Source: Cyanidioschyzon merolae (lineage: Eukaryota). From it: 64,000 nucleotides of DNA. Positions 1,820 through 40,576 of this stretch are shown piece after piece. The stretch lies in the NCBI GenBank assembly GCA_000091205.1, contig AP006494.2; one strand, written 5' to 3'. Under the pieces are notes generated by a model. That model saw only the letters and a program-made list of their open reading frames with translations. It ran no database searches and was not told the DNA's origin. Each line of letters begins with the position of its first letter. Position 1 is the first letter of the stretch. A program made the position numbers and the translations under genes.

Positions 1820-2514
1820 TTGAGGGCGTCGAGTTGAAAGATGTGCGCGTTGTCCAGAGTCATCCGATGGCGCTTGCGCAGTGTGAAAAGTTCCTGTCCG
1901 AAAACGGACTTACCCGCGAAGTAGCGCTGGATACTGCAGGCAGTGCACGTCTCCTGCGCGATAAGGGCTATCGGGATCGTGCGGCTATCGCAGGGGCTCG
2001 TGCCGCGCAAATCTACGCTCTGAATATCTTGCGTGAAGATATAGAGGATGAACCTGAGAACTTCACGCGTTTCCTGATTCTGGCGCGAACGCCTTGCGCA
2101 GCGCCACCGCTTGGGGTACCGGCCAAGACATCGATCGCCTTCTCGCTGATCAACACGCCGGGAGCCCTATTCAAGGCGCTCTCGGTCTTTGCTCTCCGAG
2201 ATATTGATCTTACCAAAATTGAGTCCCGCCATTTGAGGTCCCTTCGACATCTGCGTTCCCGGGAGAGCGCGCAGCTCCGTGCAAGTTCGACGAACGGTAG
2301 GTCGGATACGCTTGCGTCCATTGCCAGCAGGGGAGTATCGGACAACGCCGACGTGGAGAACGTTCCAGATCGGCGTCGATGGGAGTACCTTTTTTACCTG
2401 GACATATCTGCCAGCCTCGCGGATACCAAAACGAATAACGCGCTTAACCACCTCGCAGAGATTACGACTTTCATCAGGGTACTGGGGAGTTACCGGCGTC
2501 ATTTGGCCGAGTAA
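1489..2514 (+). CDS. Prephenate/arogenate dehydratase (PDT domain plus C-terminal ACT-like domain)
   Basis: VAYQGEPGAYSE...VLPIENSLAGTIHRNYDLL...VVQSHPMALAQC are classic PDT-domain signatures. The C-terminus (SIAFSLINTPGALFKALSVFALRDIDLTKIESR) is an ACT regulatory domain. Assignment rests on established motif knowledge. Confidence 0.8.
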   Translation: MIELVVHSDGVSSPDWNAGEVPLRVAYQGEPGAYSESAAIEYFGENLQLVPCETFEKVFELVEKDGADRAVLPIENSLAGTIHRNYDLLLQHQLHIVGEVDFCVRHYLLALEGVELKDVRVVQSHPMALAQCEKFLSENGLTREVALDTAGSARLLRDKGYRDRAAIAGARAAQIYALNILREDIEDEPENFTRFLILARTPCAAPPLGVPAKTSIAFSLINTPGALFKALSVFALRDIDLTKIESRHLRSLRHLRSRESAQLRASSTNGRSDTLASIASRGVSDNADVENVPDRRRWEYLFYLDISASLADTKTNNALNHLAEITTFIRVLGSYRRHLAE

Positions 2515-3629
2515 TGCATCGCCTAGTTCTCGGCGAAGGACTCGCATTGAACTTGTGGAACGCAGCGGATGCACGCAAAAGCCATGCGTCTTCTCCGCTA
2601 CAGCGTCCTGATCCGGTGCAGCGTTCGCGATATCGATTCTTGGCCGAAAACTTGCACAGCTTCAGACACGCTTCATCGCTCAAACGCGAATGAGCAAGAG
2701 CGGCCACGTCCGCTGCTCCTCGGTTTGATCGCTGGCCCCGATGACCAGGGGTTCCCTCCGCCCCAACCGCCCGTGTCCAGTTGCACTGCACGTAGGGACG
2801 TCCTTACGCTAATACGCGGGCCCTTGGCACAGAATCCATGGCGATTCTCAGCGTCCAGCGCGACCTCTTACGTTGTTGCCGACAGCGCGGCCGTATATAA
2901 GCACTGTGTCGCGCTCACAACAACAGCAACACCAACGCGTCCATGCTCATGTAGATGCCTTTTCGGCGGAGAAATTCGTCTACGGCCACCGATACATTTT
3001 GCGTAAAAGCATATCACAGAAAGCCCATCGCAAGTCTCGAACCTGAAAAGCCATCCAAGGTCCTCCATAGCCTCCGACGTAAAGCATGCCACAAGCACAT
3101 TGCGTGCTGTCGATTGGAGCACCTCGACAAGCAGCACGCATCCAGCTTTCGTGCGACCTCTAGGCGCCGCAAGCAAGGCCACGTTGCTGTGAAACTGCAC
3201 TGAATTCATGCAATGCCCGCGATAGACGCTGCACCTGTTGGGTTATCGGACAAAGGAAGCCTCAGCCTATCAAAAGGAGACTCATCTGGTGCTAGTTGAA
3301 CGTAGAACGCGCTGTGGAGAAACTGCAATACCTGTTGGGACGCCGTATTCGCGCCACCTCGGGTGCCGGGTTCAGTCGACGCACGACACGCACATTCGAC
3401 GCCTTCCGAGAATCGCGTACCGCTGCGCACCGCCGCGACGCTTCACGCCAGTCGCTGGACGCTGGGGCGGCGGCTTCCATGGACTCTCTGTCCGCTTTGC
3501 TGGGAAGCGGACACCGCGGCGGCGGCGGCGTCGATCAAAATCCTTGGGGTGGTACCCGGGTTTGTCGGCGGCGTCCGGAGCAGAAGCAAAGTCAATTCTG
3601 ACGTTGTGCTTTACGCGTGAACACTGCGT

Positions 3630-5705: not shown

Positions 5706-6378
5706 AACCGTGCGGCAAACGCGTGTACGTTCATTTTATCCCAGATCTCAGCACTGGGTACAGCGCTACTGTTCGGCATGCGGCGGCGTTCCTGGCCCAG
5801 AGCCTGGAGGCAGTCCATTTGCACGACGTTGCGGCGATACCGCAGTGCACGCTCGGTTCTTTTCGACTAGTTTCGAGCGTAAGCGGTCCTCAAGACTTGA
5901 AACATAAACAGGAGCGTTATTGAACTCGAGACACGACGCGCAGTGCCACTGCTGGCGAGCACAACGACGCTGTGCCAAGAGCACCGCCACGTCCCGCGGC
6001 GTGCGGTGCCATGCTAGGCAGCCGCCTCTGCGACCGCCCACTCTCCAGACAGTGCAGTGGCCACGCACAGCACTTGTTGCGATCGTCCTATGCTTTGTTC
6101 GTTCTCCTGTAGCGTATTGGCTCGATGATCCTAACCAGAGTGTCCAGATCTGCGAAAATCACTTGCTTCGGAGCTATAATAGCGCCGGCTCCCAAAATTT
6201 CGCCCGCGTTCCCGCTCCTGAACAGTGCCATACTTTTAGCGACTGCAACACACCGCCATGCACATCACAACGTCTCCGCAGACAGTAGTCGTCATCCGGA
6301 TCCCGTTGCACACGGATGCAGTGCAGAGGAACGATGCGCGCACCAGCAAACGCCTTTCAGAAAGCGAACGACGCCAGC

Positions 6379-6660
6379 GGTGTAGAGTAGTGGCGGCAAC
6401 CGCGCCCTGGACAATACGTCTCCAGCTTAGGTGCAGACGCCTCCTCGTCTTTCTCGACCGGCCACCTACTACTGCCTCCAACTTTTTCTCATATAGTTCC
6501 ACTTTGAGTGATTGTCCGACAAAATTCTCTCTGGTCAGCTCCGCAGGTCTTGTATCCATCATTGCACCAAGCCCGGAGACTAACCAACAAGTCACTTGCG
6601 GCCTTCCGAGAAAAGATAACGAATTAACGGTACATTAACGAAGAAGCAACACCAATAGAG
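6379..6660 (-). mobile_element. Solo 3'-tail fragment of the TnpB/Fanzor-like element family, truncated at the RuvC-III region where the LINE-like element begins
   Basis: Minus-strand translation ...PAELTRENFVGQSLKVELYEKKLEAVVGGRSRKTRRRLHLSWRRIVQGA matches the copy-1 tail ...PPEWTRENFIGQPLKVELYAKKFEEVVCGRSRKTRRRLHVSWRRFVYGA. Upstream, only FVN of the NRDFNAAINI motif remains. Confidence 0.55.
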
Positions 6661-9600
6661 GACTCTACAATAGGAAAAGAGACCCAACCAGATACGGAGA
6701 GGGAGGCACAAAGGCCTCATGATCCACCTAGATGCAAAATAACCAGAGAAAGCAGCTCAGGAAAGAGCCCGAAGAAGAAGAAGGCCAACGAGAAAAAATA
6801 GATGAATAGAAAAAAGAACTCCCGAACGAGCCCATCACAACTTGTTCCCCGAAAGAGCACCCCAGCAGGAACTCAAGAAAGCTGCCGCCAAACCAAGTCA
6901 CCTACTCACAGCGCTGAAGATGCGAAAAGCCGTGCATACAAATCTTTAGACCAATTGGCACGCGAGTATGTAGATGGGAATCAGAAGATTGCCAGAGAGC
7001 TGGGACTGCTTGCACCAGAACGTAACAGTTGCAAACCTCAGTACCTGAAACGACGTACCAAAACTCGGATTGATGAATGCCACCGACTCTATAAAATCGT
7101 CAACCGCACCGCCATACGCGCCAACGCCGGAGACAAGGAAGCGAAGGCAGCGCTACCGGTGCCACAGGCGCAACATGAAGAAGCTATCAAAAGAAAGAAG
7201 AAACTTTCCAGAGAAGACAAACGAGAGGATCGAAACCGCAGAATCGCCTCCCTGGCGAAATCTATGTTGGAGAGCACCAACGAAGATGAGACCTGGCGCT
7301 ACATTCGATCGAGACTGGACCCACCAAAAAGTGCTTGGGGCTCACACCAATCGTTTATAAGAAAGCGCTGAGGACGGAGAGTGCCTCAGTGAATGAGGCC
7401 TGGACGGACCACGGCACAGAATTACATGAAGACGCAACTGGGCACTGCCAAGACAGAATCTATTGGCACCAATGTGCTGCCAAACTACAGCGCCTCGAAC
7501 CGGTACCGGAATGGAACGACCCAATCTTCTGGCCTGAATCTGTTCGGACCCTGCTATGCTCAAGCAACCGCAAAACACCTGGCATCGACGGTATCTCTGC
7601 GGAGTGGATGATACTGGTGACCCCAGAAGACGGGACAACAGGGACACCATCGATACCAGATGAACTTGACACAAGCTTAGGCAAACGCCTTTTGGAGCTC
7701 ATTCAACGCATGTTTGAAGAGGCGTACATCCCGGATGTATGGAGGACTGCCGAGGTCGTACCGATCCTCAAAAAGGACTCCCACACATACACAGACATGA
7801 ACATCTACCGGACTATGCGCCTCATCCCGTCAATCATGAAGCTACTTTGCGCCATGCTCACGAACCGGATCCAGAGGCGCCTCGAGGAACGCAAGTTCTT
7901 CGCCCCAGAACAGGCTGGATTCCGGAGCCGCGAGGAGTGCATGAGCCATGCCCTGACCCTCATTGAAGTGGCGCAACGTCGCTTCATTAGCGACCAACAA
8001 CCAGCTTACGTATGCTTCATCGACTTCCAAAAGGCCTTGGACCCGGTCCCGCATGAGGCTCTATTTCTGAAGATGCAACGAGCCGGAGTCTCCGGAAAGT
8101 GCTTAGCGTTCTTCCGTGCGCTCTATGCAGACTCGTGGATGCGCATCCAACTGGGCGACTGCTCAAGAACCCCTTCCATAAGAATCCACCGTGGACTGCG
8201 ACGGGGCGACCCCACATCCCCGCTCCTTTTCAAAATCTTCATCAACGATCTGCTGAACATCTGCAGACAATACGGGCTTGAGGTGCCGTGGATAGACTGT
8301 GGAGATGCCCGATGAGGAGCCCTCACATAGGAACCGCCTCGCAGGCCGTCTATTTGCGGACGATGTCGTGCTGTTGGCACCCGCCCCGGGAACGCTTGCG
8401 GCTAGCATGGAACAAGTCAGCGCCTGGGCCGATCGCTGGGAGATGAGCATAGGAGCATCGAAGTGCGGCGTCATGGTCATCCATGGAGACTCGCAGAGCA
8501 TTCGCAATCGCTCGTGGCGGTTGCAGAATCAGGAAATTCCGATCGGGGAAAAATATCGCTACCTGGGGGTCTGTCTCACGCCGACGCTCGACGAAAAGGC
8601 ACACGTTGACGAGATGATCGCCAAGATGCATAGACGTACAGCGATCGCACGCCCAGTCCTATCCGACCTATCCCCTTAGCAATCCGTACCAGGGCACTAA
8701 GGATGTGTATCATCCAGCCTGCGACCTGGGGTGCTGAATGGTGCGGCATGAAGCACCCAAATGCCTCGCGTCTGCAGACAGCCGCCAACAGGGCAATGCG
8801 ACTCGTTGTAGTTGGATGCTCAATGCAGAGCAGAGCAACCAACCCGCTGGCACTCGGACTTGAACTCCAAATAGCCTCGATAGAAGCGATAGCGGCAGGC
8901 TGCCGGGCACGCATATGGGCCAAAAGGGCCCACCATGTACACCTGGTTCAGTCGGAGTTTCATGCAGACCCCAACGCACCGCAAAAACACTTGGATGAAA
9001 TCAACGCAGATTTGGCTGAAGCGCCTCTTAGGAGACAACACGCTCCAATCGTTCCCCAGAAATATAGAATTCTCCCGTCTCCTGAAGCGAACGGTCCAAA
9101 CAACAGTACGGGAATGTAGACATGCAGTCAGTCGCGCGAGTGACGCCGGCTTGACTCTATACTGGAACTACAACCTAGCATACACATGCAAGTACTGGTG
9201 GGAGGCGCTGGGGTTCCCGGGACTTGCTCGCGGCAGCCAGTGGCTCGCCAAAATCCGCGTTGGTGGCTTCTGGCTGGCACCGGCTCTAAGCCGTATAGGA
9301 ACACCGGAATCGCACTGGGAATCACACTGTCCCTGCTGTGGAGACGAGATCCCCGAGACGATGACATATTTAGGCTTACAGTGCCCGCGCTGGAAACAGG
9401 AGCTGGACGTCACCGTGATATTCAAAGGCCGGACACTCACTTTGAGTGTAGCACTGGCAACTGATGGTCTGTTAACGGAGCCTCAGCGCTCATTAGTTGC
9501 GAACAAACTCACACTCTACCTTCTAGGCGGAAGGTCCAGCGAATCGGATGCGCACACGGGCCCAGTGCTCTCTGCGCCTACCTACTGGTGGGTGTCAAGC

Positions 9601-10030
9601 AGAAACCCGCATTGCCAACCGACAACAACGCATTCCATGCATGATCACGAAGGAGAGAGGCGGCTCCCAGGATTCATTCTAACAGTCAAGTTTCTCCAGC
9701 GTGTCGTGCGGCGAAGACAAGCCTGCATCCGCAGACTATCCAAGCACAAACTGACGATGAGACCGGATTCTACGTCGGGTGAACCATGCCTCGAGCCGAC
9801 GCCCTCTGTGGTATGGAAAAGCCGTTCTGTCTCCGTGCAGCGACCGCACCGGCGCTTTAGGCGCCATTGCTGTCGCTTTCGGCAGGCTCGGCACACGATA
9901 GGACGTATGAAACGACCAGAATATCCAAAACGAAGTACAGGTAATGTAACTTGAGTGTAAGGGGTTGATGGATACCTCACCGCGCACTGAAAAAACACAA
10001 AAAGAGAGAAAGAAAAGAAAAATGCGCACA
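6660..10030 (+). mobile_element. Degenerate non-LTR (LINE-like) retrotransposon: basic N-terminal ORF, RT domain, CCHC-like knuckle, A-rich 3' tail
   Basis: ORFs 6802..7371, 7335..8315, 8299..8679 and 8935..9954 are collinear but in different frames. RT motifs FIDFQKALDPVPHEAL and FADDVVLLAP (FADD box). The downstream ORF has HCPCCGDEIPETMTYLGLQCPRW. The element ends in the A-rich stretch 9990..10030. Confidence 0.7.
7335..8679 (+). pseudogene. Reverse transcriptase gene of the LINE-like element, interrupted by a frameshift near 8300
   Basis: The RT fingers/palm motifs are split over two overlapping frames (7335..8315 and 8299..8679). Confidence 0.65.
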
Positions 10031-10493
10031 ATCGGAGAACGCTGGCACAAGGAAACGTTTTGTTCATTCTAAAAATCGCACTCGTTAAGCGCACCTGGGA
10101 GATCAGGCGGTCACCTGACACGACGTGCATGTCGCCATTGAAGGGAAACGCGATCCTGATCAGGAGCGTACTGCTCTACTGTACAAAATTTTATTTGCGT
10201 TAAAGTCGTAGCAAAATACAGTTTTTCAATTCATTTGTGTTTCAACCCTCAAACAAGTCTAGTCAAGTGTTTGTTCGCAGTATATTATATAAGGGTTCAA
10301 AGAGCGTTCTTTTTCAAAAAACTAAAAAAAAGGAAACCTATGAAAAAGCAAGTCGACGATCCTGGAGGTCCAGGGCCGCAGGCTGCTAGAAAAAAACAAA
10401 AACACTGCCGAGTCCAGAAGAAAATGAAGAGAAGGAGGACTGAAAGGGGAGGCTCTACGTCGAAGGCGGCAAGAAAGACAACTGTACGACGAG

Positions 10494-12842
10494 ATGGTGG
10501 TGAAAGCCGGTCTTCTTGAACATATCAAGGATCCGTACAGGGAAAAGTTGCGAGACGCTATCAAAAAACGTCTCGATTCGTACTCCAAGAGTATTGTCAA
10601 GGCGTCGTCAGGACTGATGCATGTGACGAGGGAGATGTATGAAGACGTGACGCACATCGGAACGGTCGAGATTCCGGACGAGTTTTTCGACAAGACCTTT
10701 ATTCGTCATGTGATGCTTGGTACAGAGGAAGCACGGAAGGAAAATGAGCTAGTGCATGCCCTCCACGAAAACTTCGCGGAATTCCGCTTCGAGGGCACTC
10801 GGTACAAGGGTGACTCGGATATGTACACATATGGGGCAATGAAGTACATTACGAACCTGAAGAACCATTTGACAGAGAACCTCGAACGTTTCATGAAACG
10901 CGTCGTGTTTGCACTCTACCCAGGCATCTCTTGCAATGGAAAATGGGCGATTATCAATGGCATCACGAACGATCGAAAGTATGAAGATGAGATCGAATTT
11001 GTCGACAGGAAGGCGCCGAGAGTGAGCGCGAAAGAAGCTTCTGCGATCCGCGCGGTTTTACAAGAGCATCGTGCGCTACTGGGGCTGGCGAATCCAACAG
11101 ACAAGATATCAGAGTTGAAAAAAGATAAGGAAAGATACTATCGCCTCGTCCTGCGGTATTTCGTGTTTCTGGATCGTTAACTCGAACGCTAAGCGGAGAT
11201 GAAGCTGAGTGAAGAGACAAATGAAGAGTGGGAGAGACGGAAGGCTTTCCTAATGGGGAAGCGCTTCAACGGCGTTCCAATGTGCAAGATCAAGTCACAT
11301 TTTGTGACTATCGACTCCGCAGTCCTTCATGGCATCATGAAGGAGATCAGTCCGGAGTTCAGTGTCAGCAGGGAGGAATTCTCCGGTGAAAACCGGGAGA
11401 CGCACTGGAAGAATATCTTCGATTTCAAACGCCTCTAAGTAAGCAAACAAAGGGTATTTACAGGGTTGATCGAAACAGATGGAGTAGCCTTGTGTGTACA
11501 CTATCGGCGCTTGAAGACAGATCGTCCAGCACCGCCCGTTACGAAGGATGGAGAAAAGGAGGAGGCTGGTCCTGCGACACAGGAGGTGGAGGATAATGTC
11601 CTTGTCGTTGACGCGGCGAAGGATGAGGATCAGAAGGAAGCGGGTCTTGCGATGCAGGAAGTGCATGAGAAGGACCTTGTCGTTGACGTCACGAAGTATG
11701 AAGATGAGAAGGAGGCGGAACCTGCGATGCAGAATGTGGAGGATAACGACCTTATCGTTGATGCGGCGGAGCATGAGGAAAACAAAGAGGAGGATTCTGC
11801 GACGCAGGAAGTAGAGGATAACGACCTTGTCGTTAACGCGGAGAAGCATGAAGAAACCAAGAAGGCAGGTCCTGTGACACAGAAAGTGCAGGGTAACGAC
11901 TTTGTCGTTGGCGCGGACCCTGGGAATACGAATATTATAGCCGTCGCTGTACCCAAGCGTGCGGAAGATGGTGCTGACGGTAACTTGCGTCAGAAAGACA
12001 TGCGTCTGTTGAGGTTCTCGAGAGCAAGATACTATCGAGAATCCTGTATAATGAATGCGAGGAAGAAAATCGTCAAATGGAATTCAGGAATGAAAGATCA
12101 CCTGGAAGCTTTGAGCGAGGTGACGAGTCGAGGAGCGGACTTTAAAGCTTTTCGGGAGTTCATGAAAGTTCGCGTTGCCCATTGGGATGCACTGGGGGAG
12201 GAGTATACCAAGCCCCCGGTGGGCTCGTTTGCGTATGAATTTGTATTTTGGGAAGCAGCGGGCGTTCGCGAATTTTTTCAATCAATTGAGTGCCCTGAAG
12301 GATGATGAAAGTCAGAGGCTCGTAGTAGCGTACGGGGCAGGGCAATGGAAGACCCAAAAAGGAACTACGCCAGCTCCAACGACGAGGGTGTACAAGGAGT
12401 GCGCAAGGCGTTTTGTTACAATACCTGTAGATGAGTTCCGAACATCGTATACACACCACGACTTGGGGTGTACACTTCAGAGCGTGGAGTTAGAAAAGTG
12501 CCCGCGGAGCCTTGAGGATATAAAAAAGTATGGACCGCTGACGGTAGAGCAAAATGGAAAGGATGTCGAAAGTTCGTGGACTACTTGCATTAATAAGTAG
12601 AACCAGTGATGGTAAGAAACGTATGGAGTTTGTGAACCGAGATTTTAATGCCGCTATCAATATAAGGAAATGTGCGGTGCTGGAGAATAGACCTCCAGAG
12701 TGGACAAGAGAGAACTTTATTGGACAACCTCTCAAAGTGGAACTATATGCGAAAAAGTTTGAAGAAGTGGTGTGTGGCCGGTCGAGAAAAACGAGGAGGC
12801 GTCTGCACGTCAGTTGGCGACGATTTGTCTATGGCGCCGGCC
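10494..12842 (+). pseudogene. TnpB/Fanzor-like nuclease gene, originally about 780 codons, broken by two in-frame TAA stops (11178, 11193) and at least two frameshifts (about 12200 and about 12560)
   Basis: Pieces are 10494..11180, 11199..11438, 11466..12305, 12175..12600 and the first 96 codons of 12554..14959. Where copy 1 reads FLDR*LER*AEMKL, copy 2 reads FLERELERQAEMEL, so these are point nonsense mutations, not introns. Confidence 0.6.
11580..11885 (+). repeat. Four tandem 75-bp (25-aa) acidic repeats ([14 protein letters not shown]...Q) inside copy 1, directly abutting RuvC-I
   Basis: Units [25 protein letters not shown] / [25 protein letters not shown] / [25 protein letters not shown] / [25 protein letters not shown] are followed by [14 protein letters not shown]. 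Copy 2 has a single unit. Confidence 0.8.
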
Positions 12843-12889
12843 GCTACTACTGCACGCCGTTGGCGTCTTTCGACTTTCGAACGGCGTTG

Positions 12890-14959
12890 ATGATGCCCTG
12901 CGTTCGTATGAGGCGTTCGTTTTCGAAAATAGCGCTGTGTTCCGCTGCGGCTTTTGTTTCGTCTGCAACGGTGCTGTTGCTTGGCGGGTATGACTCGCGA
13001 TGGTACACCCCTTTGGTTGCGAGAGCGCACTCGGCTAGCGTGGCGTCTGTGGACCACGGGCCGTTGCCGGTGCTCGAGACGCCACCGCGTCGTCACGCGC
13101 AGCTGCGAGTGTTAAAAGAGAGCGGCATGCGTTATGAATCTGTCCAAAAACGGAAAGCCGAAGCTGGAGGCGACGGCTCATCAAAAGAGGCTATGAGTGC
13201 AGTGGTACCGAGCGCTTTGCCGGAAGACGGCCTCTTCGATATTCTCGTCGTTGGTGGCGGCGCGACCGGCTCCGGCGTTGCACTCGACGCAACGCTCCGT
13301 GGACTCCGAGTTGCTCTAGTAGAGCGGAACGATTTCGCGTCTGGCACGTCGTCTCGTTCGACGAAACTCATTCATGGTGGTGTCCGGTACTTGGAAAAGG
13401 CGTTCTTTCGTGCTGACCCTGCGCAACTAAAGCTCGTCTTCGAAGCTTTGCATGAGCGAGCGATCATGCTCCGTCAAGCGCCTCACTTGACACAACCGCT
13501 GCCGACGATCCTGCCGTGTTACAAATGGTGGGAGATCCCATTCTATTGGGCTGGGCTCAAGGCCTACGACTTTCTGGCCATCGCAGGCAATGGCGCGCTC
13601 TATATGAGCAAGTTCCTCTCGGCGGCGGAAGCGCGGCGTCAGTTTCCGACCCTTTCAGCGCGCCGTGGCCGGGACGGCGCCACCCTCAAAGGCAGTATTG
13701 TGTACTACGATGGCCAGATGGATGACGCGCGATTCAATGTGACGCTTGCAGTGACGGCGGCGCTACACGGGGCAGTGATTGCAAATCACACTGAAGTTTC
13801 GGGCTTGATCAAGGATGCCTCAACTGGAAAGGTCATTGGCGCAACAGTTCGTGATCGTTTCACCGGAGAAGAATTTCCGGTCTACGCGCGAGTGATTGTG
13901 AACGCAACCGGCCCGTTTGCGGATCGGATACGAGCGATGGACGAGGGACCTGAGGCGCTCGGTCCCCAACGCATGATAGTTCCGTCATCTGGGGTGCACG
14001 TTACTCTGCCCAGTTACTATTCTCCGGAAGGCATGGGTTTGATTGTACCAAAAACGCGCGACGGTCGGGTTGTCTTCATGTTGCCATGGTTGGGATCGAC
14101 AATTGCCGGCACCACGGATTCAAGCACGGAGATTACGGACATGCCACGTCCGCATGAGGCGGAGATTGAGTTTATCTTAGACGCGCTTCGTGATTATCTG
14201 AACGTGGAAGTGCGTCGAAAGGATGTTCAGAGCGCATGGAGTGGTATTCGACCGCTTGCAATAGACCCCAAAGCGAAGGACACACAGAATATCCTTCGTG
14301 AGCACACAGTCCACGTCTCTGGCTCGGGTCTGCTGACCATCGCGGGTGGCAAATGGACGACTTACCGAAAAATGGCACAGGACACTGTGGATACTGCTAT
14401 CAAAGTTGCAATGTTGGAGTCTCGCGTGAAGCACAAGTGCTTGACAGAGAAGGTCATCCTCACCGGAGGTCATACTTATGACCCGTCGTATTTCGCTTTT
14501 CTCACGCAGCACTATGAAAGAGTGAAATACTCTGTCAGTAAGGGTGCCAAACTCCAGACCACGACGCTGGACGTAGACATAGCGCAACATCTTGCTCGAG
14601 CCTACGGAGATCAAGCTTACAAGATCTGCGATATTGCGAGCAGGGAAGATGCTGGTTACGGCAAACGCATTGCGCATGGCTACCCGTATATTGAAGCAGA
14701 GGTCGTGTACGCAGCTGAAAACGAATACTGTGAGACAGCCCAGGACTTTTTGGCGAGACGCTCGCGTCTTGCGTTTCTGAACGCCCGGGCGGCGAAAGAG
14801 GCGCTTCCCCGCATCGCTGAGATTCTCGCTGAGATCCACGGCTGGAGTCGCACCCGCTTGCAGACGGAAATGAAGGAGGCAATGGAGTTTCTCGAGACGT
14901 TTGAGTCCGGTCGTACGACTGGTGAGGTCGGTGAACAGGTTGAAGCAGTGGCCGCATAA
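12890..14959 (+). CDS. FAD-dependent glycerol-3-phosphate dehydrogenase (mitochondrial GPD2/GUT2-type), about 690 aa
   Basis: DILVVGGGATGSGVALDATLRGLRVALVERNDFASGTSSRSTKLIHGGVRYLEKA is the FAD/GlpA-family N-terminus. Start placed at the in-frame MM at aa 113 of the ORF-track ORF 12554..14959; the upstream 112 codons belong to the transposon tail. Confidence 0.82.
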   Translation: MMPCVRMRRSFSKIALCSAAAFVSSATVLLLGGYDSRWYTPLVARAHSASVASVDHGPLPVLETPPRRHAQLRVLKESGMRYESVQKRKAEAGGDGSSKEAMSAVVPSALPEDGLFDILVVGGGATGSGVALDATLRGLRVALVERNDFASGTSSRSTKLIHGGVRYLEKAFFRADPAQLKLVFEALHERAIMLRQAPHLTQPLPTILPCYKWWEIPFYWAGLKAYDFLAIAGNGALYMSKFLSAAEARRQFPTLSARRGRDGATLKGSIVYYDGQMDDARFNVTLAVTAALHGAVIANHTEVSGLIKDASTGKVIGATVRDRFTGEEFPVYARVIVNATGPFADRIRAMDEGPEALGPQRMIVPSSGVHVTLPSYYSPEGMGLIVPKTRDGRVVFMLPWLGSTIAGTTDSSTEITDMPRPHEAEIEFILDALRDYLNVEVRRKDVQSAWSGIRPLAIDPKAKDTQNILREHTVHVSGSGLLTIAGGKWTTYRKMAQDTVDTAIKVAMLESRVKHKCLTEKVILTGGHTYDPSYFAFLTQHYERVKYSVSKGAKLQTTTLDVDIAQHLARAYGDQAYKICDIASREDAGYGKRIAHGYPYIEAEVVYAAENEYCETAQDFLARRSRLAFLNARAAKEALPRIAEILAEIHGWSRTRLQTEMKEAMEFLETFESGRTTGEVGEQVEAVAA

Positions 14960-16519: not shown

Positions 16520-17990
16520 TTGGGACGAAATAGACAACTCTTCTAGTCTTTTAACTCAGTTTTGGTCCGCGCACGCTGAATGGAATAGAATGCTATTTGG
16601 TAGTGGATAGCACGAGATCGACGTCAAGATGCAATGCACCCTATAGATCGCAGACGAATTCAGTATAGGATATGTATTCTATGCTGACCAGTACACGGAG
16701 CACTGGATTCCTCTTTAAGATCAGTGATACTACAGTACTCTGATGGTTGAGGAACACTGAACGAAAGAAGTGCATGCGCTCTGGGACAAGAACCAATATG
16801 CCCACGGCGTGCTTGCGATCAATGCTAGGAAACGACCCGTTGATCACTTTAGGGAACGTAAAAGTGCCGATCGTAGTCGCCACGGGCGTCTCTGTTTCTC
16901 AAAGGCTTGTTTGCGTGCTCCTGGAAACACCGGGATACAGTCGCCTAGAAGAATCCCAGCTCACTCACTACCACCATCCACCGAAAGCTGAACGACAGCG
17001 TTACGGGAGCGTTGCGATCTGTGTAGAGTACAGGGACGTCGATGGGTCCCAGTCGATGAGACATCCCTCGGAAGATACCATCGAAGCGTATAAGGATATT
17101 CGTGGAGCAGGGCACCTATTGTGCGCACCATCAAACTCGAAGAGACTAACGACATCATCGACTTTTCTAGCAGCAGTGGACTCATTTGGCAGCCTCACTT
17201 TCGCTGCTAGAGAAGCTCCATCTAACAGCACCAAACTCTTTGCCGAATCATTGAAGACTTTTCCCTGACGTCCGGCGACGTCATTCTATTAAACAACATG
17301 GAATTTTACCATTCCACTTGCGTCCGAGTATTTGCCCGTACTCTCGAAGTGTAGAGCTGGTTTTCACACCCGAGTACGCTCCATGCTTCAACCCATCGAA
17401 GGAGTGTTTTCTGCTGTGAAACGTAATGATCGCTCCATCGGGCGAATTGCTGACGCGTTCTCAGCGCACGGCGACGCGGGGACACATGTGGCCTCTCTTG
17501 CACAAGTCCTACCTCCTCCGGTGATGTCCTCACCGACGAGCATAGACAAGTGCGTTCATTTGAAGAAATAAAAAATCCAAGGGAAAGTCATGTAAATGGA
17601 AATCGAAGATCCTAGAGAGGCATCATCGCCGAGTTCGACAAAAAAATCCTCTTCTCGCCAAACATCAAGCGAAGAAGAACGACTGAGAAAGGAGAAAAAG
17701 AAGAAGAAGGCAGGAGATAGACCAGAGAAATGCTTGCCTAACCAGGCGATGACGAGATTGTGGCGCCACAGCGAGCACGACTTCTAGCAATCCTTGCATT
17801 GGTGAGTTCAACCGGCGTCAATGCACGCAAAGAGCTCGTGAACCGAGAATTCAACGTCGCCATCAGTATCAGACGATTTTTGGTGCTGAAAACGAGACCC
17901 ACGGAGCTAATGCGATCCAACTTCGTGGGCAGCCCCTCAACTTCGAAGAAATACCTGAATAAACTGAAACCGATTGCAGGCGGGCGGGGG
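16520..17990 (+). mobile_element. Composite dispersed repeat, copy A (about 1.4 kb): 5' module with a DE(T/S)xF-like remnant, then the Fanzor-like 3' tail (17800..17990)
   Basis: Collinear about 70% nucleotide similarity with copy C (60520..61640) and with the reverse complement of copy B. It shares the 24-mer gccacgggcgtctctgtttctcaa with copy C. The tail translates ...KELVNREFNVAISIRRFLVLKTRPTELMRSNFVGSP...KPIAGGRGVRK. Confidence 0.5.
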
Positions 17991-18273
17991 GTCAGAAAAT
18001 GCCCGGAGGCGTCTACATGCGGGTATCTATATTTACTCTCTGTGGTCTTGAAACGTTTACCGTTTCAATGCTCACACATATTGCAACAGCCATATCGCGT
18101 CATCGCACAGGCGATGTGTCCATCGGCAACGCCTAGCTGTTGATCAAACGATCCGGCGGGCGCGATATGCCACCCTCGGAGTGCGATCAAACATCCAGGC
18201 TCACAGGCGGACGCTGCGAGTGTACTTCCCTCGCAAGCCGCTGAGGTGTGCCTAGCGCTCGCTTTGAAGCAGT

Positions 18274-21596: not shown

Positions 21597-22065
21597 GAGT
21601 TCAACAGATATGCGCAGCTCGTGCGCCCGATTTCGAATTGAAACGCTCCGAGATTCCGTTCTGCGGTGCTGTGCCCGGCGCCGCCCGGTACCCCTTTACG
21701 TGTGTCGACCCGGCGGCCGTTCAGGCGCTGCAAAGCGGGTGCATCTCTCCAGGGCACCGGATTTCCCTGTTTCGCAGTTTGTTGACACCCAGAAGGGATG
21801 TTTCCGTTTGGTCGCTTGATATCAGCGCTCGGAGTAGCATCCATCGTTCCTCGCCCTACTTCCAAATTCCACTACCGACAGTCGCCCTCAGAGGTGCTGG
21901 TGATTTTCCACCTTATATCGTGCGTCAAGTGCCCGTCGTGAGCGGCCTCGATAGCCTGTATAGCGCAAGCGCGAATACAGTACGTAAACGGAACGGCTTT
22001 GTCATACTGCTGAAGGCGTGGGCTCGAAGTACAGGGAGCGGGATGCACCACCGAGGCAGGCGTCT

Positions 22066-26544: not shown

Positions 26545-27399
26545 CGGCAGCTATATTGATCGACTGGCGCTGTGAAGCAGCAGCGCTTTGCTTTTGCTCC
26601 GTTGCTGATTCTGCTGCGGAAACGTTGACGGACGCGTCTCAATGCTTGTTCATCGAATGGGCGCATTAGTCGCTGCTCTGACATACAACACAGATTCCCC
26701 ATGTTGTTCAACGTTGACGATGCATTCGATAGGGCAAGTGGCGGCACCCCGGAGACCCGCCTCCGCGCAATGGCGTGCATGGACCGCGTTCTTGATCTTG
26801 CCAATCAATGAGCTTCAGCGTGTGTCGCAGTTCATGGATGAGTGCCGATCGACAAGAAAAAGTTCAAGCCATACTCATTGACGTATCCGTAAATGTCACC
26901 GCATTCGGAATCTCTCGAAGCACAAGAAAGCAAAATCGCATCCGGGAGATGCTGGTTCGATCCATCGAGCTCAAGTCACTTTACTTGCAACGCCAATACG
27001 GACACCGTCTGGCATAGCAGAGTCCCGTCGACGGCAGACAGGCTGTATTCTATGCACCAAATCATGCCACCAGCGCCGAAGAGACCCATTCCAGCGTCTG
27101 GTGTACGACGTCTCGAAAACCGAGGTCATCCGTGATGCGGCAAAGCCGTTCCGCTTCCGTCTGCGCCCGCAGCAGGTACTCACGGCAACTTCAGCACCTG
27201 GAGGATCATAGGAATGAACCATGATCCTTAAAGGAAAGTATGGGTGGTTGCTGGTGAAGAGCTTTACGATCAAGTGAGCCATAACTGACGTTCTCCTGGA
27301 CGTCGATGGCCATGGAGCACAATCGAGGATGCCCAGGTTCCCGTGAACGATGCGACATCTGCATTTGCACACATGTCAGTGAAACAAGAAATGTCCCAC

Positions 27400-28900
27400 G
27401 ACCACTTATTGTAAATGAGTACCACAAGCGCACACGCCTCACAGCTTTTTCTGACCGGCCGCCTGCAATTAGTTTCAGTTTCTGCTTGTACACATCGAGC
27501 GTGAGAGGCTGCCCCACAGGTTTGCCTCGTGTCAGCTCTGCGGCTCTTTTCTGCAACACCACAAATCGTTTGATATTGATGACGGTGGTAAAGTCTCAGT
27601 TCACGAACTCCATGCGGGTATTTTCTCTGGGAGAACCTATCAGTGGAAAGAGTCCTCGAACTCGTGCCATTTTGTGCGGTGGCAGCTATACGCGCTTTTC
27701 TATCGCGAAAGCGCTCCGCTGCCCTCTCTCGAACTCGAACTTCTATAGCATACATATCAGCTCATTCCCTGTTTTTTTGCATGAACTACTTCTTCATGCC
27801 CTTCGGTGAGGACGTTCCCGAAGGAAGCAGGACTTGCGGAAGAGAGACCGCATGTGTCTCGGTGTAATCGCGTGTCTCCGTGTGTTGAACGCTTCAGCGA
27901 TTCGCCCAGTGGAGCGATCGTCACGTTTCATAAAGACAATGCTCATTAGATGCGGTTGAACCACGGAGTGTATAGACGAACGTAAAGCAGCTCTATTCTC
28001 GGATAGATTCGGCAAAAGCTCGAACGCGATTGGAACGGTTAGATGCGACGTCGCCCAATAGAATGACGTCGTCACGGTTCTCGAGACAAGTGTTCAATGA
28101 TTCGACAAAGTGGTTGGTGCTGTTGTATGGCCTTTCTCTACGGGCGAAACTGAGTCCGCCAAATGAGTCCACTAAAGCTAGAACAGATGATGATGCCGTT
28201 GGTCTCTTCGCGTTCGATGGTAGGCACAACGGGCGCCCTGCCCCGCGAATACCCATGTACGCTCCGAGCGCTTTATCCGAAGCAAGTCTCATCGACTGGC
28301 AAAACAAATCGACGTCCATGTGCTTCATTCGGATCGCAACGTTCCAGGAACTTTGCTGTGGGTGTGATTTCGGTGGAAGATGGCCGTACATGACATTGGT
28401 CGTCTTTTTTGTTACTGTATCCCAGTGTTTTCAGGATCACACGAACTAGCCGCCGAGAATCAGAGATGCACGTGACGACTATAATCCTCTGCTTTGCTTT
28501 CCGTGAGGTAATCAAGGAGTTAATTTTTTGTACAATTCATCGCAAGCAGTCTTCAAGATTGTCGGTTTTCGGCACGGAGCACATATACTTGTTTCTTTCA
28601 GTGTTCATCAAGCATCAGCGTGCTGGAGCGTGACGAATCTGAAGGAGGCAAAGCAGCACTCCCAGCGCTCTACAGTAAAGAGTATATATCCTACCGGAAA
28701 TTCGTCTACGATCTATCGAATACATTGCATCATGATGTCGACCGCCTGATGTATATTGTGAAAAAGCATCCGATTCCATACAGCGGGATGAAAGTAATAG
28801 AGTTGAAACACTGGAGAAGAGAATGAGCGGTGGCACTCATAAACGCTGCACTGCGCTCGATGCGCGACGCAACAGCGCGGCGTCGACGTCATCTGCAGTG
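27400..28900 (-). mobile_element. Composite dispersed repeat, copy B (minus orientation), ending in the Fanzor-like 3' tail (27400..27620)
   Basis: Minus-strand translation ...RMEFVN*DFTTVINIKRFVVLQKRAAELTRGKPVGQPLTLDVYKQKLKLIAGGRSEKAVRRVRLW. The upstream module matches copies A and C (for example KRDDRSTGRIAEAF vs KRNDRSIGRIADAF, and ...RRFVLPVDETCFG). Confidence 0.5.
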
Positions 28901-31900
28901 CACGATGCTGGCGAGCCACGGAGCTGCGGAGACGTCTGCTTGCTCTACGCTTACCGACCAGCCGACCGACCTACATACCGGGACACCGGTGTCGTCATCG
29001 TGTCGACGAAACGTAGCGGGCGTCGTGCGTGCAGCATCAGAGCGCACGTTCTACCGGAAAGATCACGGAGCATATGAAGCTGCTGGGCGTTTGGTGTGCG
29101 CAAATAGCTGTGTGAGTGCTCTTTGCTCTTTTGTGGACAGCTTGAAGGTGGAGCAGCCTCCTGGTGCTTTCAGATGTGCGTGGAACAAGACGAATCTATG
29201 ACAGCTGCTCACCATGCAGGCGAGGAAAATTATGGGTTGAATAGTTCTAGGGAGCTTGGAGACGCTCTCGGGGCGACAGAGGATGAGGCGGCGCGCGTGC
29301 GGCTCTTACTGGCTGCGACAGTGCAGGAGCCTGTGACGTGTCCGCCGGCAGCGCACACCGCGGATGCCGGCTCTGCTGGTTCGCAGCCAGCACGTCGATC
29401 CTGGCGCTACCGTTTATCGGTTTGGTGGTATCGCTACAAGGTATTTACCTTGTGGGTGGTTCTCGAACCGAGCGAAGTTGCAGTCACGCAGACGATTTTG
29501 TGGTCGACGATACTCGTCATTGGGTATCGAGTTCTGATGCGTATTTGGCGTTTTCTCCGATGACGGTTCACGTGTTGGCGCCGTTTCCATCTGGCGGCTG
29601 TTGTGGGAATCCAGCAGCAGACAAGTCCGTGACGGTATTGTTGGCAGAGCTTGCATCGCATGCTAACCCATGATCTCGGTTGACAAAGGTGGGCGCAGTT
29701 TTGCAGTAGTCTCATCGCGACATGGAGTACAGATTGAAATTGAATGAATGGGCATGAATCAGGATTACATGTGCTAAACCGTGCCTGATGACTCTCATGC
29801 GAAACCGTTTGTGCGGGGCTTCCCATCGAGCGCACCAAACAAATGGCAAGCCGCTTCTCGAAAATGCCCAGCTCGAGGTTTTAGTGCGGACACTGAGTCG
29901 CTCAGAGGCTGCTCGTGTGCTTTCAGGGCACTGATTCGGTGCAAGGAGCGAGCGTTCGGAGTCGTCGACCGCCGGCTGCGGGACGGTTCGTTCCGAGCGC
30001 CGTACCGGGCGCGTGCAGGCTCTATGGTGCCGAAAATAGCGGCAAAAATGCGAAACACGGACTTGTGCAGCGCTCTGGTTGGATACGAGCGAGATCGCCG
30101 GGATCGACGCTGGACGCCACCGATACTGGTGTTGCAGGTTGCGTTTTCGAGCGCCGTGCGTTGTGCACCAAGCAGTGAGTTGCAGAAAAACCGTGCCATT
30201 GCACCCTTTTTGTTGATGTTTGCTTCTCTCGCATCTATTCAACAAAAGCGGTTCATCCTGTAGGTTGGATAAAGATCGCGGGAGGACTTGATGCCATCAC
30301 TGGCACGTTACGGAAAACGACGTTACTTGTGCAGATCAGTGATTCTATGGTCAACAGATGGACGAGCCACCCTTCTCGTCGTTCTTATCGTGTACGCGGT
30401 GCTCCAGAGAACAGCGCTTACCAAACGCTATCTACCCGGCTGTGCCCTCGTCAACTCAATCGACTCTGTACGCACTCAGACGTATAGAATCAATGACCCC
30501 ACCGGATGAGAAGATTCTATTCGATTGATACGAACGGTGATAATGCTTCGCTGATGGACCCACAAGAAAGCACGTTTCTCTTGGAGGCCGTCACATGTCC
30601 AACAACACAGCATCGATTTCGTAGTAAGACGTGGACGCGTCTTCCAGTCGAGATGGGCGTTCGTCTCACTCGTTGAGACTTCGTTCGGGATAAACAGCAG
30701 ACCCGTGTATGGGTACGCAAAGAGGCGCAAACCTCTGTTCGTAAAGAAGAGACAGTCGGGTATTCCGAGAGCGTGAGCCCTCGCGGCGTTTCAATTGTTT
30801 GTTCGGCTAAAAAGTATCTAACGGACAGGATCGTTCGGCAGTTCATCCTTCCAGGCAGCACCTCCTGGCTCGTCCCCCGCAGCTTATTCCGTCTTGATCT
30901 TAGACAACGTCGCTCTCCGTCACGAAAAGAAAAGCCGCCCAGGAGAACGCGGCAGAGGCTAACGTTGAGAGACTCTTCATGCAAGCTTATCCTCTAGGGT
31001 TTCAACCAATCGAAGGTGTCGCGTATCTCATCAGACCCCATTTCTATGATCACGAATAAATACACGAGTCGTTTGCATCCGCGATTGTGAAGCGCGTACG
31101 GCCGTTCTTGATCAACAGGTCTCTCTCTATACGCTACTAGCTACAAAGTGCTGTGATGCTCGTCTTCTCGAGCGCGTGAGGACGCTGAAACGCTCGCTTG
31201 AGTCGGTGGACGCGCTCGCGATGGACACGGTGATAAAAAGGTACTTGGGGAGTCGAAGAAACAGAAACAGAAGGGACGGGCTTCGGCGCCACAGTGCACA
31301 CTTTTCGTCCGTATCACGCGATAAACAACGGATCTAGAAGCTACCGAACTCAGCAGCGTAAAGAAGAAGGCTGAAGATAAGAAGGAGAAGCAATCAACGG
31401 ACATAGATGTCGAAGATCTTGCCCCGAAAGAGGTTAACGATGGACTGGAGAAAAACTGACCGAGCTTATAGATCAGTCTGGAACCGTTTTCCACGCCGCC
31501 CTTGGAAAACAAATCAACAGGGGGGGTCTTCCAAATAGTAATAAGTAGGACCTGCTAGGGATCGCATGGCTGCTTCTCACTTGAGTAAGTCTCATCTTGC
31601 CGCTCCCACGATGACACGGCTCTTCAGGCAACTGATCGTTAGAGTCCCCGACTCTGGGCTGTCAGTTGCCTACGTACTACTTGAATTATTCGTTCAAAGC
31701 TTCCTACGACGGCAGAGCTGAGGCTCAGGACAAAAGCTGTAATTGCGCCTGATCTTTGGATTCGGGGTTCAGTGTATGTGCTTCTCGGAATACCTTGACG
31801 CATCGCAGCGCCACCTTGGCGTGCGGAACGTCGACCGGGCAGTCGGCAGATTCGATCCTATCGAGCATCGAGGCTCATTTCCGACCAGTCAAGGTAGACG

Positions 31901-33774
31901 AAGAGAAAGACTTCATGTTGAGCATGGATACCAGGTTCAAGGGCATCGCAGCCGTTACCATTCCACTTATTCAAGAGGACGGAGCCAAAGACGTGAAGAG
32001 AAAGCAGAGGAAGCCGCTGAAGTTTTCTGGGGCTTGGTATTATCGGGTGTCGATCATAATGGACTCCAGGAAGCATAGCAATAGGTGGAATGTCGGCATA
32101 CGGATCCACCTGCATGTTCTGAGAATCATGTTGCGTTGAAGCAGGGGCGTTGCTTTGTGTGTTTCAGTTGGAGAGTCGTTGAGCGTGCAGATAGCACGTA
32201 AGGACCCCCTTTGGCTGGTTAGCATGCGATTGCGCCAGACTCGCCAGCGGTTTCGGTTGTGCATAAGTACAAAGCGTGAATTCGCCAACTTGTGCAGTGA
32301 GTCGGAAAAGCAAAAGACAGAGAAGGCGCGTCGTTTAATCGGAGCCTATGACGCTGGACATACTGTAACGCACGGGGGCTGGTTTCCTGCGCCTTCGACA
32401 TGACGCGGCAACGCGTGAAAGAATCGATTCTGCACGATTCGCATCCATGAATTAGGGACGATTTACGCGGATCTTGGATACATATCCAAGCTGAAACTCG
32501 TCGAGAAGAAGAACGTGAAACAGAGCAAGGTGCACGAGATGGTATTTGGTTAGCTGACTGAACATCAGATTGCGAGCCAGTTGAAGGTGACATGCTTCCT
32601 TGCGCTCGATTCCGCTGGGAACAATGCGCGCAAGCACTTTCTGCACTGGGACTTGAACCCCTCGATCAGCCTACGGAAAGCACTGGCGCCTATGGAGCAC
32701 TCAGCGGTTTTTTGTCCAGCGAGTTTTCGCGGCAGTCTTTTCGTACTCAGGGTAAGCACGGGGCAGAAATGCCGTAGACGTGCAGAGAAAAAAACGAGTG
32801 GCCAGGAGAGCGCATTGGATTACCGCCTGAAGTAATGCACTGGTATGGTACGATGTAGCAATGCAAAAAGCATACAGGACCGGATGTATACGCAGAGAAC
32901 GCCTCTTCTGGGCAATTGCTGGACACTCATGGTAATCCATTATTCGATAGGACAGCGTTTGCGTCTCCCATAGGAATGAGACGCTGCGCGATCCCAGCGC
33001 ACAGTGGAGACCGATTACTGTTTCCTGCTAGATGATGAATGCTACTGCCCCATTGGTCCGTGTTGTTGATTCGGAAGCGGCAAACGCTCCGATGAAAAGG
33101 ACCTGCAGAATCGCTATCTGAAGCGGAAAGGTTCTCGCGTGTTGCCGCTGTGCGGTGCAACGCAGGAGCTCTTCGGCGCGGCTGCTGCGACGGCCAAGTT
33201 TTTCCATTTGTTTCGCCGTTTCCGTGAATCGAGCACCTGCTGCACAAAAATTCCACACACCGGAATCGGACCTGGTGCGGATTATGAAGAGACCCTCAAT
33301 AACGAGGCGCGAATTGCTGGCGCTGCAAGCATTGCCGATCATTCCGTGGATTCGCTCTGAGCGGGAGTAAGCCGCTGGCGAGTCACATGGCCACTGTACC
33401 GCATACGACCTGCGACATCGAGTGACAAACGAGGTGCTTTACGTTTTCCACGGGAACCCGAGATCCATTCGATGCATACAGCCTGGCGCTGGGACAGCTT
33501 CAAACCCGCGCAATGGACCGGGTGCATCGACTAGGCAGTGGCCGCAGTTCTGCGTACGATTCGATGCGCTTTGCTGAACACCAATGTCGTATAAAGCGCC
33601 GATGGATAGCTGAGGTTTTCCGAGCAATCCGTTAGCGAGGGTCTTCGGTTTGCAGGCACGGGATATCCTAGTCCGTGGTGCATACTCCTGGCGAGTCTCT
33701 AGGCCGTTCGCGTGCTCGGCAGCCGCGGAGGTACCGCGCGAGGCACCGGTCGCTTTTCCCGCCAACCGTACGCA

Positions 33775-40340: not shown

Positions 40341-40576
40341 CGTAGACAGACGCACTGGCTGCGGCAGCGCGAAGCGATATGCTACGAGATAATCGTCATA
40401 TTGGCGACGCCCAGACGCAGTCTAAGTGTACCTGGTCTCGGAATAAACCGCGTTGCCGACGAGTTACTCAGATCTCAATAGAGTACTAGGCACTGGGTGC
40501 AGCATGGAGCACCAGCCTGGCAGACTTGTCCGGCTCGCAGGACATTCCGCCTGGAAGGTAAACGTTCGAAAATATG

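Follow-up and report, generated by a model that had tools for sequence, protein, structure and literature searches.

The stretch analyzed here, a window of 64,000 nucleotides from the Cyanidioschyzon merolae 10D genome (contig AP006494.2), carries three decayed repeats, copies A, B and C, in each of which a 5' module precedes a tail resembling the 3' end of a Fanzor gene. Two flanking proteins are identical to the C. merolae 10D entries BAM80806.1 and BAM80819.1. Two long Fanzor-like copies, F1 and F2, lie in the same window and are, judging from their sequence, members of the published CMe-1A Fanzor1 family. A preliminary description, made by eye, had held that A, B and C are collinear, that all three end in the Fanzor-like tail and that the 5' module has no counterpart in the two long copies; each of these points was borne out. 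Sensitive blastn comparison of the window with itself aligned A (16574-17559) with B (28785-27781) at 70.7% identity over 1010 columns (E = 8e-131), A (16603-17313) with C (60571-61280) at 68.3% (E = 1e-65) and B (27951-28741) with C (61361-60586) at 68.3% (E = 3e-73), and the pairwise identities in a three-way alignment were 0.71, 0.67 and 0.67. The tail of approximately 300 bp that closes each copy (A, 17775-18012; B, ~27430-27765; C, 61371-61611) matched the last ~300 bp of F1 and F2, and in tblastx the 5' module showed no resemblance at the protein level to the Fanzor body of either. A 24-mer said to be common to A and C was found exactly in A (16879-16902) and with one mismatch in C (60845-60868); the number expected by chance was 0.

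The ends of copies A, B and C, and of a short related copy termed S-left, were placed where homology among independent copies starts and stops, the independent loci being family members in hot-spring metagenome contigs (L004 and L013-L019). On this basis, copy A extends from 16534 to 18080 on the plus strand, copy B from 27366 to 28825 on the minus strand and copy C from ~60520 to 61753 on the plus strand. The limits given earlier had delineated real copies, with right ends set approximately 100 bp short and the left end of B approximately 75 bp too far out. All three copies were also correctly placed near gene ends: the right end of A and the start codon of the biotin synthase gene (ATG at 18274) are 194 bp apart, the right end of B lies ~820 bp from the 5' end (26544) of the ornithine carbamoyltransferase gene, and the left end of C lies ~160 bp from the 5' end (60360) of a saccharopine-dehydrogenase-like gene. 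Three related pieces, S-left, a divergent copy D and a tail-only fragment, had been absent from the preliminary description and are discussed below.

Transposase signatures of the 5' module

Comparison with domain profiles indicates that the 5' module is a decayed, almost full-length transposase gene of the IS630/Tc1/mariner superfamily. Once stitched across frames, the peptide of every one of the three copies matched only Pfam DDE_3 (PF13358), with E values of 1e-4 to 2e-3 and single-copy scores of 18 to 22 bits, under the gathering score of 28.6; the majority consensus of the three copies reached 54.5 bits (E = 1.5e-14), which is over that score. As the preliminary description had proposed, the consensus was compared with transposase profiles on both strands, and its antisense frames gave zero Pfam matches. 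The antisense peptide NEST..LFEFDG, previously cited among the signs of collinearity, is not coding and merely echoes conserved DNA, the sense frames being those that match DDE_3. At the N terminus of the consensus there were weak, sub-cut-off matches to the helix-turn-helix (HTH) domains HTH_23, HTH_Tnp_Tc3_2 and HTH_33 (E = 0.03 to 0.05) at the expected positions, and the same domains in intact homologues gave E values of 2e-4 to 3e-3, also below the Pfam cut-off. On the strand of the tail, the peptides run in the order HTH-like segments, PVDETxFG, G-R-G-x-x-P, ILLGDVxxxRS, YSPWFNxI and KRxDRS..IAxAF.

A protein search with the consensus retrieved intact homologues of 285 to 303 amino acids (E = 1e-35 to 1e-52), which scored 121 to 141 bits on the NCBIfam IS630 equivalog (cut-off, 100 bits) and 88 to 109 bits on Pfam DDE_3. 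These homologues start with MYPxDRRK, and the start is still discernible in A (16634) and B (28725); in tblastn searches with the intact proteins, A, B and C together cover transposase residues ~1 to 284. Alignment of the homologues revealed the invariant motifs DETSFGR, VILLDNVxFH and PPYSPWFNPIEG, and the DDE triad, conserved in 11 of them, had DD34E spacing (34 intervening residues from the second D to the E). In the consensus of A, B and C, the triad is represented by D (PVDET), D (ILLDNV) and E (FNRIE), with the spacing blurred by frameshift joins; single copies have lost residues. The PVDETxFG motif had been noted as a Tc1/mariner lead, which was the right superfamily; however, it marks the first catalytic D of the triad and not the catalytic-E region. 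A family profile of the transposase matched the catalytic domain of Sleeping Beauty (5CR4; E = 7e-4), whereas the consensus alone matched nothing meaningful in the PDB, and the "Mariner" transposase of PUl-1 from Pythium showed 27% identity along its entire length (E = 4e-23).

These data bear directly on the proposal that the module is host sequence, either captured by a non-autonomous Fanzor derivative or spread by segmental duplication. Such an origin would account for its lack of similarity to the CMe-1A body. However, the module spans nearly the whole length of a transposase gene, with the residues of the DDE triad and a weakly matching HTH region, and it occurs only as dispersed decayed copies whose relatives are mobile-element genes in many organisms. 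The DDE_3 score of the consensus, the intact homologues and the survey of tandem loci described below effectively refute this explanation. What the preliminary description offered, as one of two alternatives, as captured foreign sequence is the element's own transposase, and A, B and C do not represent transposase-less forms; nor are they miniature transposable elements with inverted repeats (MITEs), with a near full-length transposase pseudogene lying within each.

Copy A, a deletion derivative of what we designate type I, consists of a left end, the transposase relic, the Fanzor start with ~70 N-terminal codons, the Fanzor C-terminal tail and a right end, and one blastn high-scoring segment pair with the metagenome loci L019 and L013b spans positions 16540 to 18030. 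Its transposase pseudogene (16634 to 17500, plus strand) begins with the ATG relic at 16634, retains residues ~13 to 284 of ~295 and contains many stops and frameshifts; it was recovered by tblastn with four intact homologues (P0002, P0004, P0008 and P0010; E = 2e-14 to 6e-16). The segment from 17548 to 17760 (plus strand) comprises a leader of ~35 bp (AAGTGCGTTC..AAATAAAAAA), a Fanzor start-codon relic at 17596 and a lysine-rich N-terminal relic. This leader is common to CMe-1A (local alignment score, 36; reached by 0 of 300 dinucleotide shuffles). From 17760 to 18080 (plus strand) follow the Fanzor C-terminal tail, with the RuvC-III relic NREFNVAISI, and a lineage-specific right terminal region of ~85 bp; the tail matched F1 and F2 in tblastx (E = 5e-13 to 5e-16) and CMe-1A positions 2851 to 3020 in blastn at 71%.

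Copy B is a type II derivative that comprises a transposase relic (~27949-28725) with an ATG relic at 28725, a Fanzor start relic near 27755 and the tail (~27430-27765); it covers transposase residues 1 to 252 (E = 1e-14) and matches CMe-1A positions 2737 to 3084 at 66%. In copy C, which is type II-like, the C terminus of the transposase has been deleted too: a transposase relic (~60602-61384), covering residues 22 to 268 (E = 9e-18), leads into a tail (61371-61700) that matches CMe-1A positions 2762 to 2983 at 68%, and the copy ends in ...GTGTGTA at 61753. This right end and the right terminal inverted repeat (TIR) of the metagenome element L005 have an identical TGTTTCATT-N14-GTGTA spacing. 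Long open reading frames (ORFs) are absent from A, B and C, and these copies are now inactive pseudogenes. The differences among A, B and C are symmetric and transition-rich, as neutral decay would produce; a mutation bias of the kind produced by repeat-induced point mutation was considered and rejected on the same grounds.

Two-gene relatives and the proposed parent element

A single metagenome scan with the transposase alignment yielded 80 loci, 54 of which have a Fanzor homologue downstream, on the same strand in every case. Of the 51 loci for which at least 1.5 kb of downstream sequence was available, 41 had Fanzor1 behind the transposase, the two genes being separated by a median of 90 bp; in L005, L006 and L007, a large Fanzor ORF lies directly downstream on the same strand. 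The well-preserved relatives are elements of 2.98 to 3.19 kb in which one pair of TIRs encloses both genes. TIRs of 23 to 32 nucleotides starting with TACACTC were found in L005, L006/L043, L017, L028, L032, L036 and L037; their common sequence is TACACTCNGNCAAGTGAATAATGTTACA, with TA at both ends. At both ends of these relatives TA abuts CACTC/GAGTG, where a target site duplication and a TIR that itself begins with TA are indistinguishable without an empty site. The Fanzor proteins of L021 and L024-26 are 42 to 43% identical to CMe-1 and are likewise positioned behind the transposase. It is concluded that a transposase followed by Fanzor1 within one TIR pair is the normal intact architecture of this clade. 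Its tight coupling to Fanzor1 makes this transposase clade a clean system in which to ask how a cut-and-paste transposon benefits from the nuclease.

Many intact transposase-Fanzor elements reside in AT-rich contigs, among them L009 (JGI Ga0485826_0000144) and NCBI "JACC..." entries (L006/L043, L020, L038 and others). The L009 contig also encodes a protein with a Herpes_ori_bp domain, which suggests a giant-virus or protist host for part of the clade.

Within the window, the only copy with the transposase and the Fanzor body in tandem is copy D (30251-32679), in which both lie on the same strand. Its divergent transposase pseudogene (30251 to 31083, plus strand) was detected by tblastn with the intact homologue P0002 (summed E = 2e-27) and with other homologues (E = 5e-11 to 6e-20). 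The Fanzor relic (31900 to 32679, plus strand) corresponds to CMe-1 residues 422 to 681, from RuvC-I through RuvC-III, and is 32% identical to the CMe-1 protein over 263 residues (tblastn, E = 4e-31; tblastx against F1, E = 8e-19). Copies D and B face each other head-to-head across 1.4 kb; the termini of D were not found, matching to the canonical TIR being weak and non-decisive. The preliminary description had counted it against its own reading if the module proved to lie upstream of the N-terminal domain in intact Fanzor copies, as part of the same element; this is the arrangement in copy D and in 41 of the 51 related loci, whereas the two CMe-1A copies have no detectable transposase remnant.

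An alternative is that transposase-only IS630-like elements and separate Fanzor elements have come to adjoin one another through insertion preference, as the absence of a transposase from CMe-1A copies, their different termini and the clustering of transposon relics in a few large intergenic regions of this compact genome might suggest. However, order, strand and the ~90-bp spacing are alike in the 41 of 51 loci, which come from many unrelated sources, and one TIR pair surrounds both genes; moreover, deletion junctions are common to independent loci, and the published elements PUl-1 and PUl-2 have the same layout. Nested insertion is thus very improbable. We consider instead, with a probability of approximately 0.88, that A, B and C are defunct derivatives, shortened by internal deletion, of a C. 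merolae 10D transposon of the IS630/Tc1/mariner type that carried Fanzor1 behind its transposase. This reading agrees with the second option of the preliminary description, in which a larger host DNA transposon supplied the 5' module and Fanzor the 3' part; it draws on the identity of the transposase and on the tandem intact relatives.

The intact parent would have been an element of ~3 kb, with the TIR TACACTCNGNCAAGTGAATAATGTTACA next to TA, a DD34E transposase of ~290 amino acids, a spacer of ~90 bp, Fanzor1 on the same strand and a right TIR. The tail corresponds to the final ~100 codons of a Fanzor1 gene like that of CMe-1, together with the 3' terminal region. Abortive gap repair, the usual source of deletions in DNA transposons, may have removed the missing Fanzor sequences. 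We envisage that the deleted forms moved with their own transposase, through TIR binding, excision and reinsertion at TA, in which case Fanzor would have been dispensable for movement. In the intact parent, Fanzor, together with a guide RNA from the 3' end of the element, would have promoted retention of the element through cleavage of donor or empty sites; for TnpB, nuclease cutting that favors retention has been shown.

This architecture has precedents: it was published in 2013 and re-surveyed in 2023, and nothing in the present arrangement is categorically new. Bao and Jurka (2013, PMC3627910) described Tc/mariner elements with genes for a transposase as well as Fanzor1 (PUl-1 and PGv-1), and also Fanzor-only relatives whose TIRs and TA duplications are the same; Jiang et al. 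(2023, PMC10530073) have since listed autonomous Mariner/Tc1-Fanzor associations and placed the guide RNA across the TIR and right end. The C. merolae element resembles PUl-1 and PUl-2 of Pythium ultimum and PGv-1, in which the transposase and then Fanzor1 lie within TIRs of 24 to 33 bp, with TA duplications and a length of ~3 to 3.8 kb (PMC3627910), and it too has Fanzor-only relatives alongside. As in the PUl-1-type composite, copy D has both genes, and A, B and C combine a transposase with relics of the Fanzor start and/or C terminus in the right order and on the right strand. It differs in that the PUl-1 TIR starts with TTATGAAAGGCACC whereas that of the present clade starts with TACACTC, the transposases are only distantly related, and every C. 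merolae copy is dead and has suffered internal deletion.

With IS630/Tc1 (DD34E) elements the intact homologues share the DDE_3 domain, weakly matching N-terminal HTH domains, the DD34E spacing, short TIRs and TA at the ends. Unlike those elements, they carry a large second passenger gene, Fanzor1, and their transposase of ~290 amino acids is shorter than typical Tc1 transposases; unlike IS630 insertion sequences, the clade is found in eukaryotic, and possibly in giant-virus, DNA. There is also a likeness to the IS200/IS605 and IS607 families (TnpA plus TnpB) in the two-gene logic of a transposase with a TnpB-type RuvC nuclease. In those families, the guide RNA of TnpB is encoded at the 3' end of the element. 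In contrast to them, the present element has a DDE transposase instead of an HUH enzyme or serine recombinase, and TIRs with TA instead of hairpin ends, and its guide RNA is putative.

The class II elements reported from the C. merolae genome number only eight and are described as "most closely related to bacterial transposases" (Nozaki 2007, PMC1955436), and these eight "bacterial-like" relics fit IS630-like relics such as A to D. If so, four of the approximately eight would lie in this 64-kb window, as complementary deletion forms. In the literature searched, we found no paper that ties the C. merolae Fanzor family to this transposase and no description of transposase-bearing copies for this organism. 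What is new here is the linkage of the C. merolae Fanzor to an IS630-like transposase, which provides a plausible parent for the unclassified CMe-1 repeats.

Deletion forms, CMe-1A and the Fanzor tail

Most of the Fanzor gene is gone from A, B and C, with at least two distinct types of junction. In type I (A, S-left, L019/L015 and L013b), the leader of ~35 bp and the Fanzor start are retained together with ~70 N-terminal codons, and the sequence resumes near CMe-1A position 2785; in type II (B, C and L004), the first few Fanzor codons pass straight to approximately CMe-1A position 2745. The two junctions differ, yet within a type they are common to independent loci, and this recurrence of each junction at different loci indicates that the deleted forms themselves propagated.

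S-left (15754 to ~16490, minus strand) consists of a CMe-1A-type leader, a Fanzor N-terminal relic and the tail, with both genes essentially deleted; it alone fits a MITE-like short form of this kind. In blastn, A 17548-18024 matched 16263-15817 at 65%, and CMe-1A positions 790 to 969 matched 16342-16156. It stands head-to-head with A, its inner end ~45 bp from the left end of A, and it has the type I Fanzor junction of A yet no transposase. The combination of a CMe-1A-type leader with a type I junction might stem from recombination between lineages. We considered whether A might be a long-TIR or foldback element with inverted repeats of 450 bp and rejected this: S-left is a separate, short element of the same family, given that the 65% match reflects divergence like that of any copy pair and that its CMe-1A-type leader is absent from A.

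The two long copies provide the counterpart. F1 (10067 to 12888, plus strand) is a CMe-1A Fanzor1 element without a transposase, corresponding to consensus positions 638 to 3145-3169 (blastn, 84 to 88%), and F2 (39828 to 43120, plus strand) is a full-length CMe-1A that includes the 5' TE-N2_CMe part, corresponding to positions 2 to 3082 (blastn, 79.5% over 2885 columns). The CMe-1A consensus of 3169 bp was taken from the supplementary sequence of Bao and Jurka (PMC3627910). The family comprises ~150 copies, with TIRs absent, duplications undetermined and "classification unknown" (Bao and Jurka 2013, PMC3627910). The CMe-1 protein alone gave no match in PDB or Pfam; a family profile was required, and that built from CMe-1 and 22 partner ORFs matched SpuFz1 of Spizellomyces (8GKH; E = 5e-10) and GtFz1 of Guillardia (9CER; E = 8e-5). 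The RuvC residues D431, E603 and D672 are invariant or nearly so in the Fanzor family alignment, and of these motifs the tails of A, B and C retain merely a mutated RuvC-III relic.

CMe-1A is reciprocal to A, B and C in that Fanzor is retained, the transposase is absent and the termini are different. The similarity between the two groups is 66 to 71% and is confined to positions ~2737 to 3084, plus ~868 to 1040 in A. Thus, the tails, and in A the leader and N-terminal relic, are homologous to CMe-1A; however, in A, B and C a transposase gene takes the place of the 230-bp leader, unrelated in sequence, and the TE-N2_CMe part of CMe-1A, and they finish in a different terminal region of ~85 bp. 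On these sequence comparisons, A, B and C are a sister lineage of CMe-1A and not members of it. The CMe-1A repeats and the C. merolae transposase relics appear to be parts of one element type.

Two by-eye resemblances that would have linked CMe-1A to the transposase element more closely were tried and rejected. A remnant of the transposase 3' end in the CMe-1A leader (PIEG..KR, GAAGCGTTC) was not supported by a shuffle test, in which only the 30 bp upstream of the Fanzor ATG were significant in A (0 of 300 shuffles) and the best match in B was not (23 of 300). Likewise, a left end or 5' untranslated region (UTR) of the transposase element in CMe-1A positions 560 to 760 (ATAGCGCGGTCGA ~ ATAGCACGAGATCGA) failed on shuffle scores: in A, B, C, L019 and L013a alike, the region scored no higher than the mean of its shuffles.

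Several observations weigh against a two-gene parent, or against parts of the scheme. In C. merolae itself, no intact copy with a transposase plus Fanzor was seen, and copy D, the closest approach to one, is heavily decayed, with the N-terminal half of Fanzor missing or unrecognizable. Inspection of the ends of A, B and C, as recommended in the preliminary description, revealed only a weak and degenerate resemblance to the canonical TIR; neither convincing TIRs nor TA duplications could be read in these decayed copies. The proposed self-mobilization of the deleted forms relies on junctions common to a handful of copies. As to CMe-1A, a remnant of the transposase or of the left end was undetectable in its copies, the last ~85 bp differ, and it has in common with A, B and C only the Fanzor gene and ~35 bp upstream; we infer its descent from a two-gene transposon from relatives in other organisms. 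Finally, RNAalifold on 10 tails gave -2.55 kcal/mol with almost no covariation, decayed copies being poor material for such an analysis; the 3' region of the CMe-1A consensus folded at a z score of only -2.1, with 3 of 200 shuffles folding as well; and Rfam had no match in the tail or 3' region. A guide-RNA function of the tail is our inference from the literature.

Retention of the tail suggests another explanation, in which A, B, C and their like were guide-RNA satellites that kept the tail as the scaffold of a Fanzor guide (omega/fRNA) plus right end, with the CMe-1A Fanzor acting in trans. Tail retention would then reflect selection at the level of the element, and not simply the fact that transposon ends ordinarily survive. 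In each of the seven deletion copies that were compared (A, S-left, B, C, L004, L019 and L013b), the Fanzor body is lacking while the final ~100 codons and the sequence downstream are kept, and according to Jiang et al. (2023, PMC10530073) the Fanzor fRNA overlaps the right end and TIR of the transposon and reaches downstream of the ORF. In addition, the 3' region of CMe-1A folds slightly more stably than its shuffles, by the values given above. However, internally deleted DNA transposons retain both ends regardless, and the breakpoints (near CMe-1A positions 2785 and 2745 in types I and II) fall well inside coding sequence, as random deletions would. With no conserved structure, covariation or Rfam match in the tails, and with tails merely 66 to 71% identical to CMe-1A, which makes cross-recognition uncertain, we regard a satellite role as quite unlikely, and ordinary deletion derivatives of the two-gene transposon as the better account.

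A further, rather unlikely reading is that CMe-1A, having descended from this IS630/Tc1-type two-gene element, lost its transposase and TIRs and then spread without a DDE transposase. Were this the case, CMe-1A would outnumber its transposase-bearing relatives approximately twenty-fold (~150 copies versus approximately eight relics genome-wide), and it might have spread, for example, by homing or copying driven by Fanzor and its guide RNA. The reciprocal transposase-only derivatives of types I and II would then show that either gene is able to persist alone.

Other transposon relics in the window

A tail-only CMe-1A fragment at 6351 to 6567 (minus strand; inverted repeat I3) corresponds to consensus positions 2950 to 3169 (blastn, 82.7%). 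In F1, a 75-bp unit is repeated approximately 5 times in tandem (family D1; 11537-11911) within the acidic, lysine-rich linker of the Fanzor ORF, and in F2, a 96/97-bp unit is present as three tandem copies that are 98% identical (40057-40345) in the TE-N2_CMe part. The right end of F1 (12865-12895) lies ~5 bp from the first ATG (12893) of a mitochondrial-type glycerol-3-phosphate dehydrogenase ORF. An unbroken frame runs from the Fanzor tail of F1 into this ORF (12554-14959), whose Pfam DAO domains begin ~115 codons past 12893; if the ATG at 12893 is the real start, the 5' UTR and promoter of the dehydrogenase gene would lie inside the transposon.

TE-N2_CMe, which makes up the 5' 635 bp of the CMe-1A consensus, is represented by pieces at 9517-9953 (minus strand), 21855-22027 (plus strand) and 39828-40460 (plus strand). 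One piece lies in inverted orientation immediately upstream of F1, another is directly oriented within F2 and a third is a solo fragment at ~21.9 kb, and in L019 an inverted TE-N2_CMe comes after the tail; TE-N2_CMe thus behaves as a separate element that recurs beside Fanzor elements. The palindrome AAACGTTT is found close to the right end in A (18040-18080), S-left, B, C and L004 and close to both ends of TE-N2_CMe (CMe-1A consensus positions 8 to 20 and ~578 to 590), and the neighboring sequences are alike, for example CGATCGTAAAACGTTTGTCG and CGATGACAAAACGTTTACAT. TE-N2_CMe might, on this slight evidence, be a short relative whose ends are related to theirs.

A relic of a non-LTR retrotransposon occupies positions 7335 to 9954 (plus strand). 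Its ORF at 7335-8315 matches Pfam RVT_1 (E = 2e-14); a second ORF (8935-9954) has no Pfam match and contains a Cys/His motif typical of the C termini of long interspersed nuclear elements (LINEs). Together, the CMe-1A copies, A to D, S-left, the 6351-6567 tail and the LINE amount to ~16 kb, roughly one-quarter of the 64-kb window; genome-wide, 0.7% transposons plus ~5% 3.2-kb repeats were reported in the C. merolae genome paper (PMC1955436).

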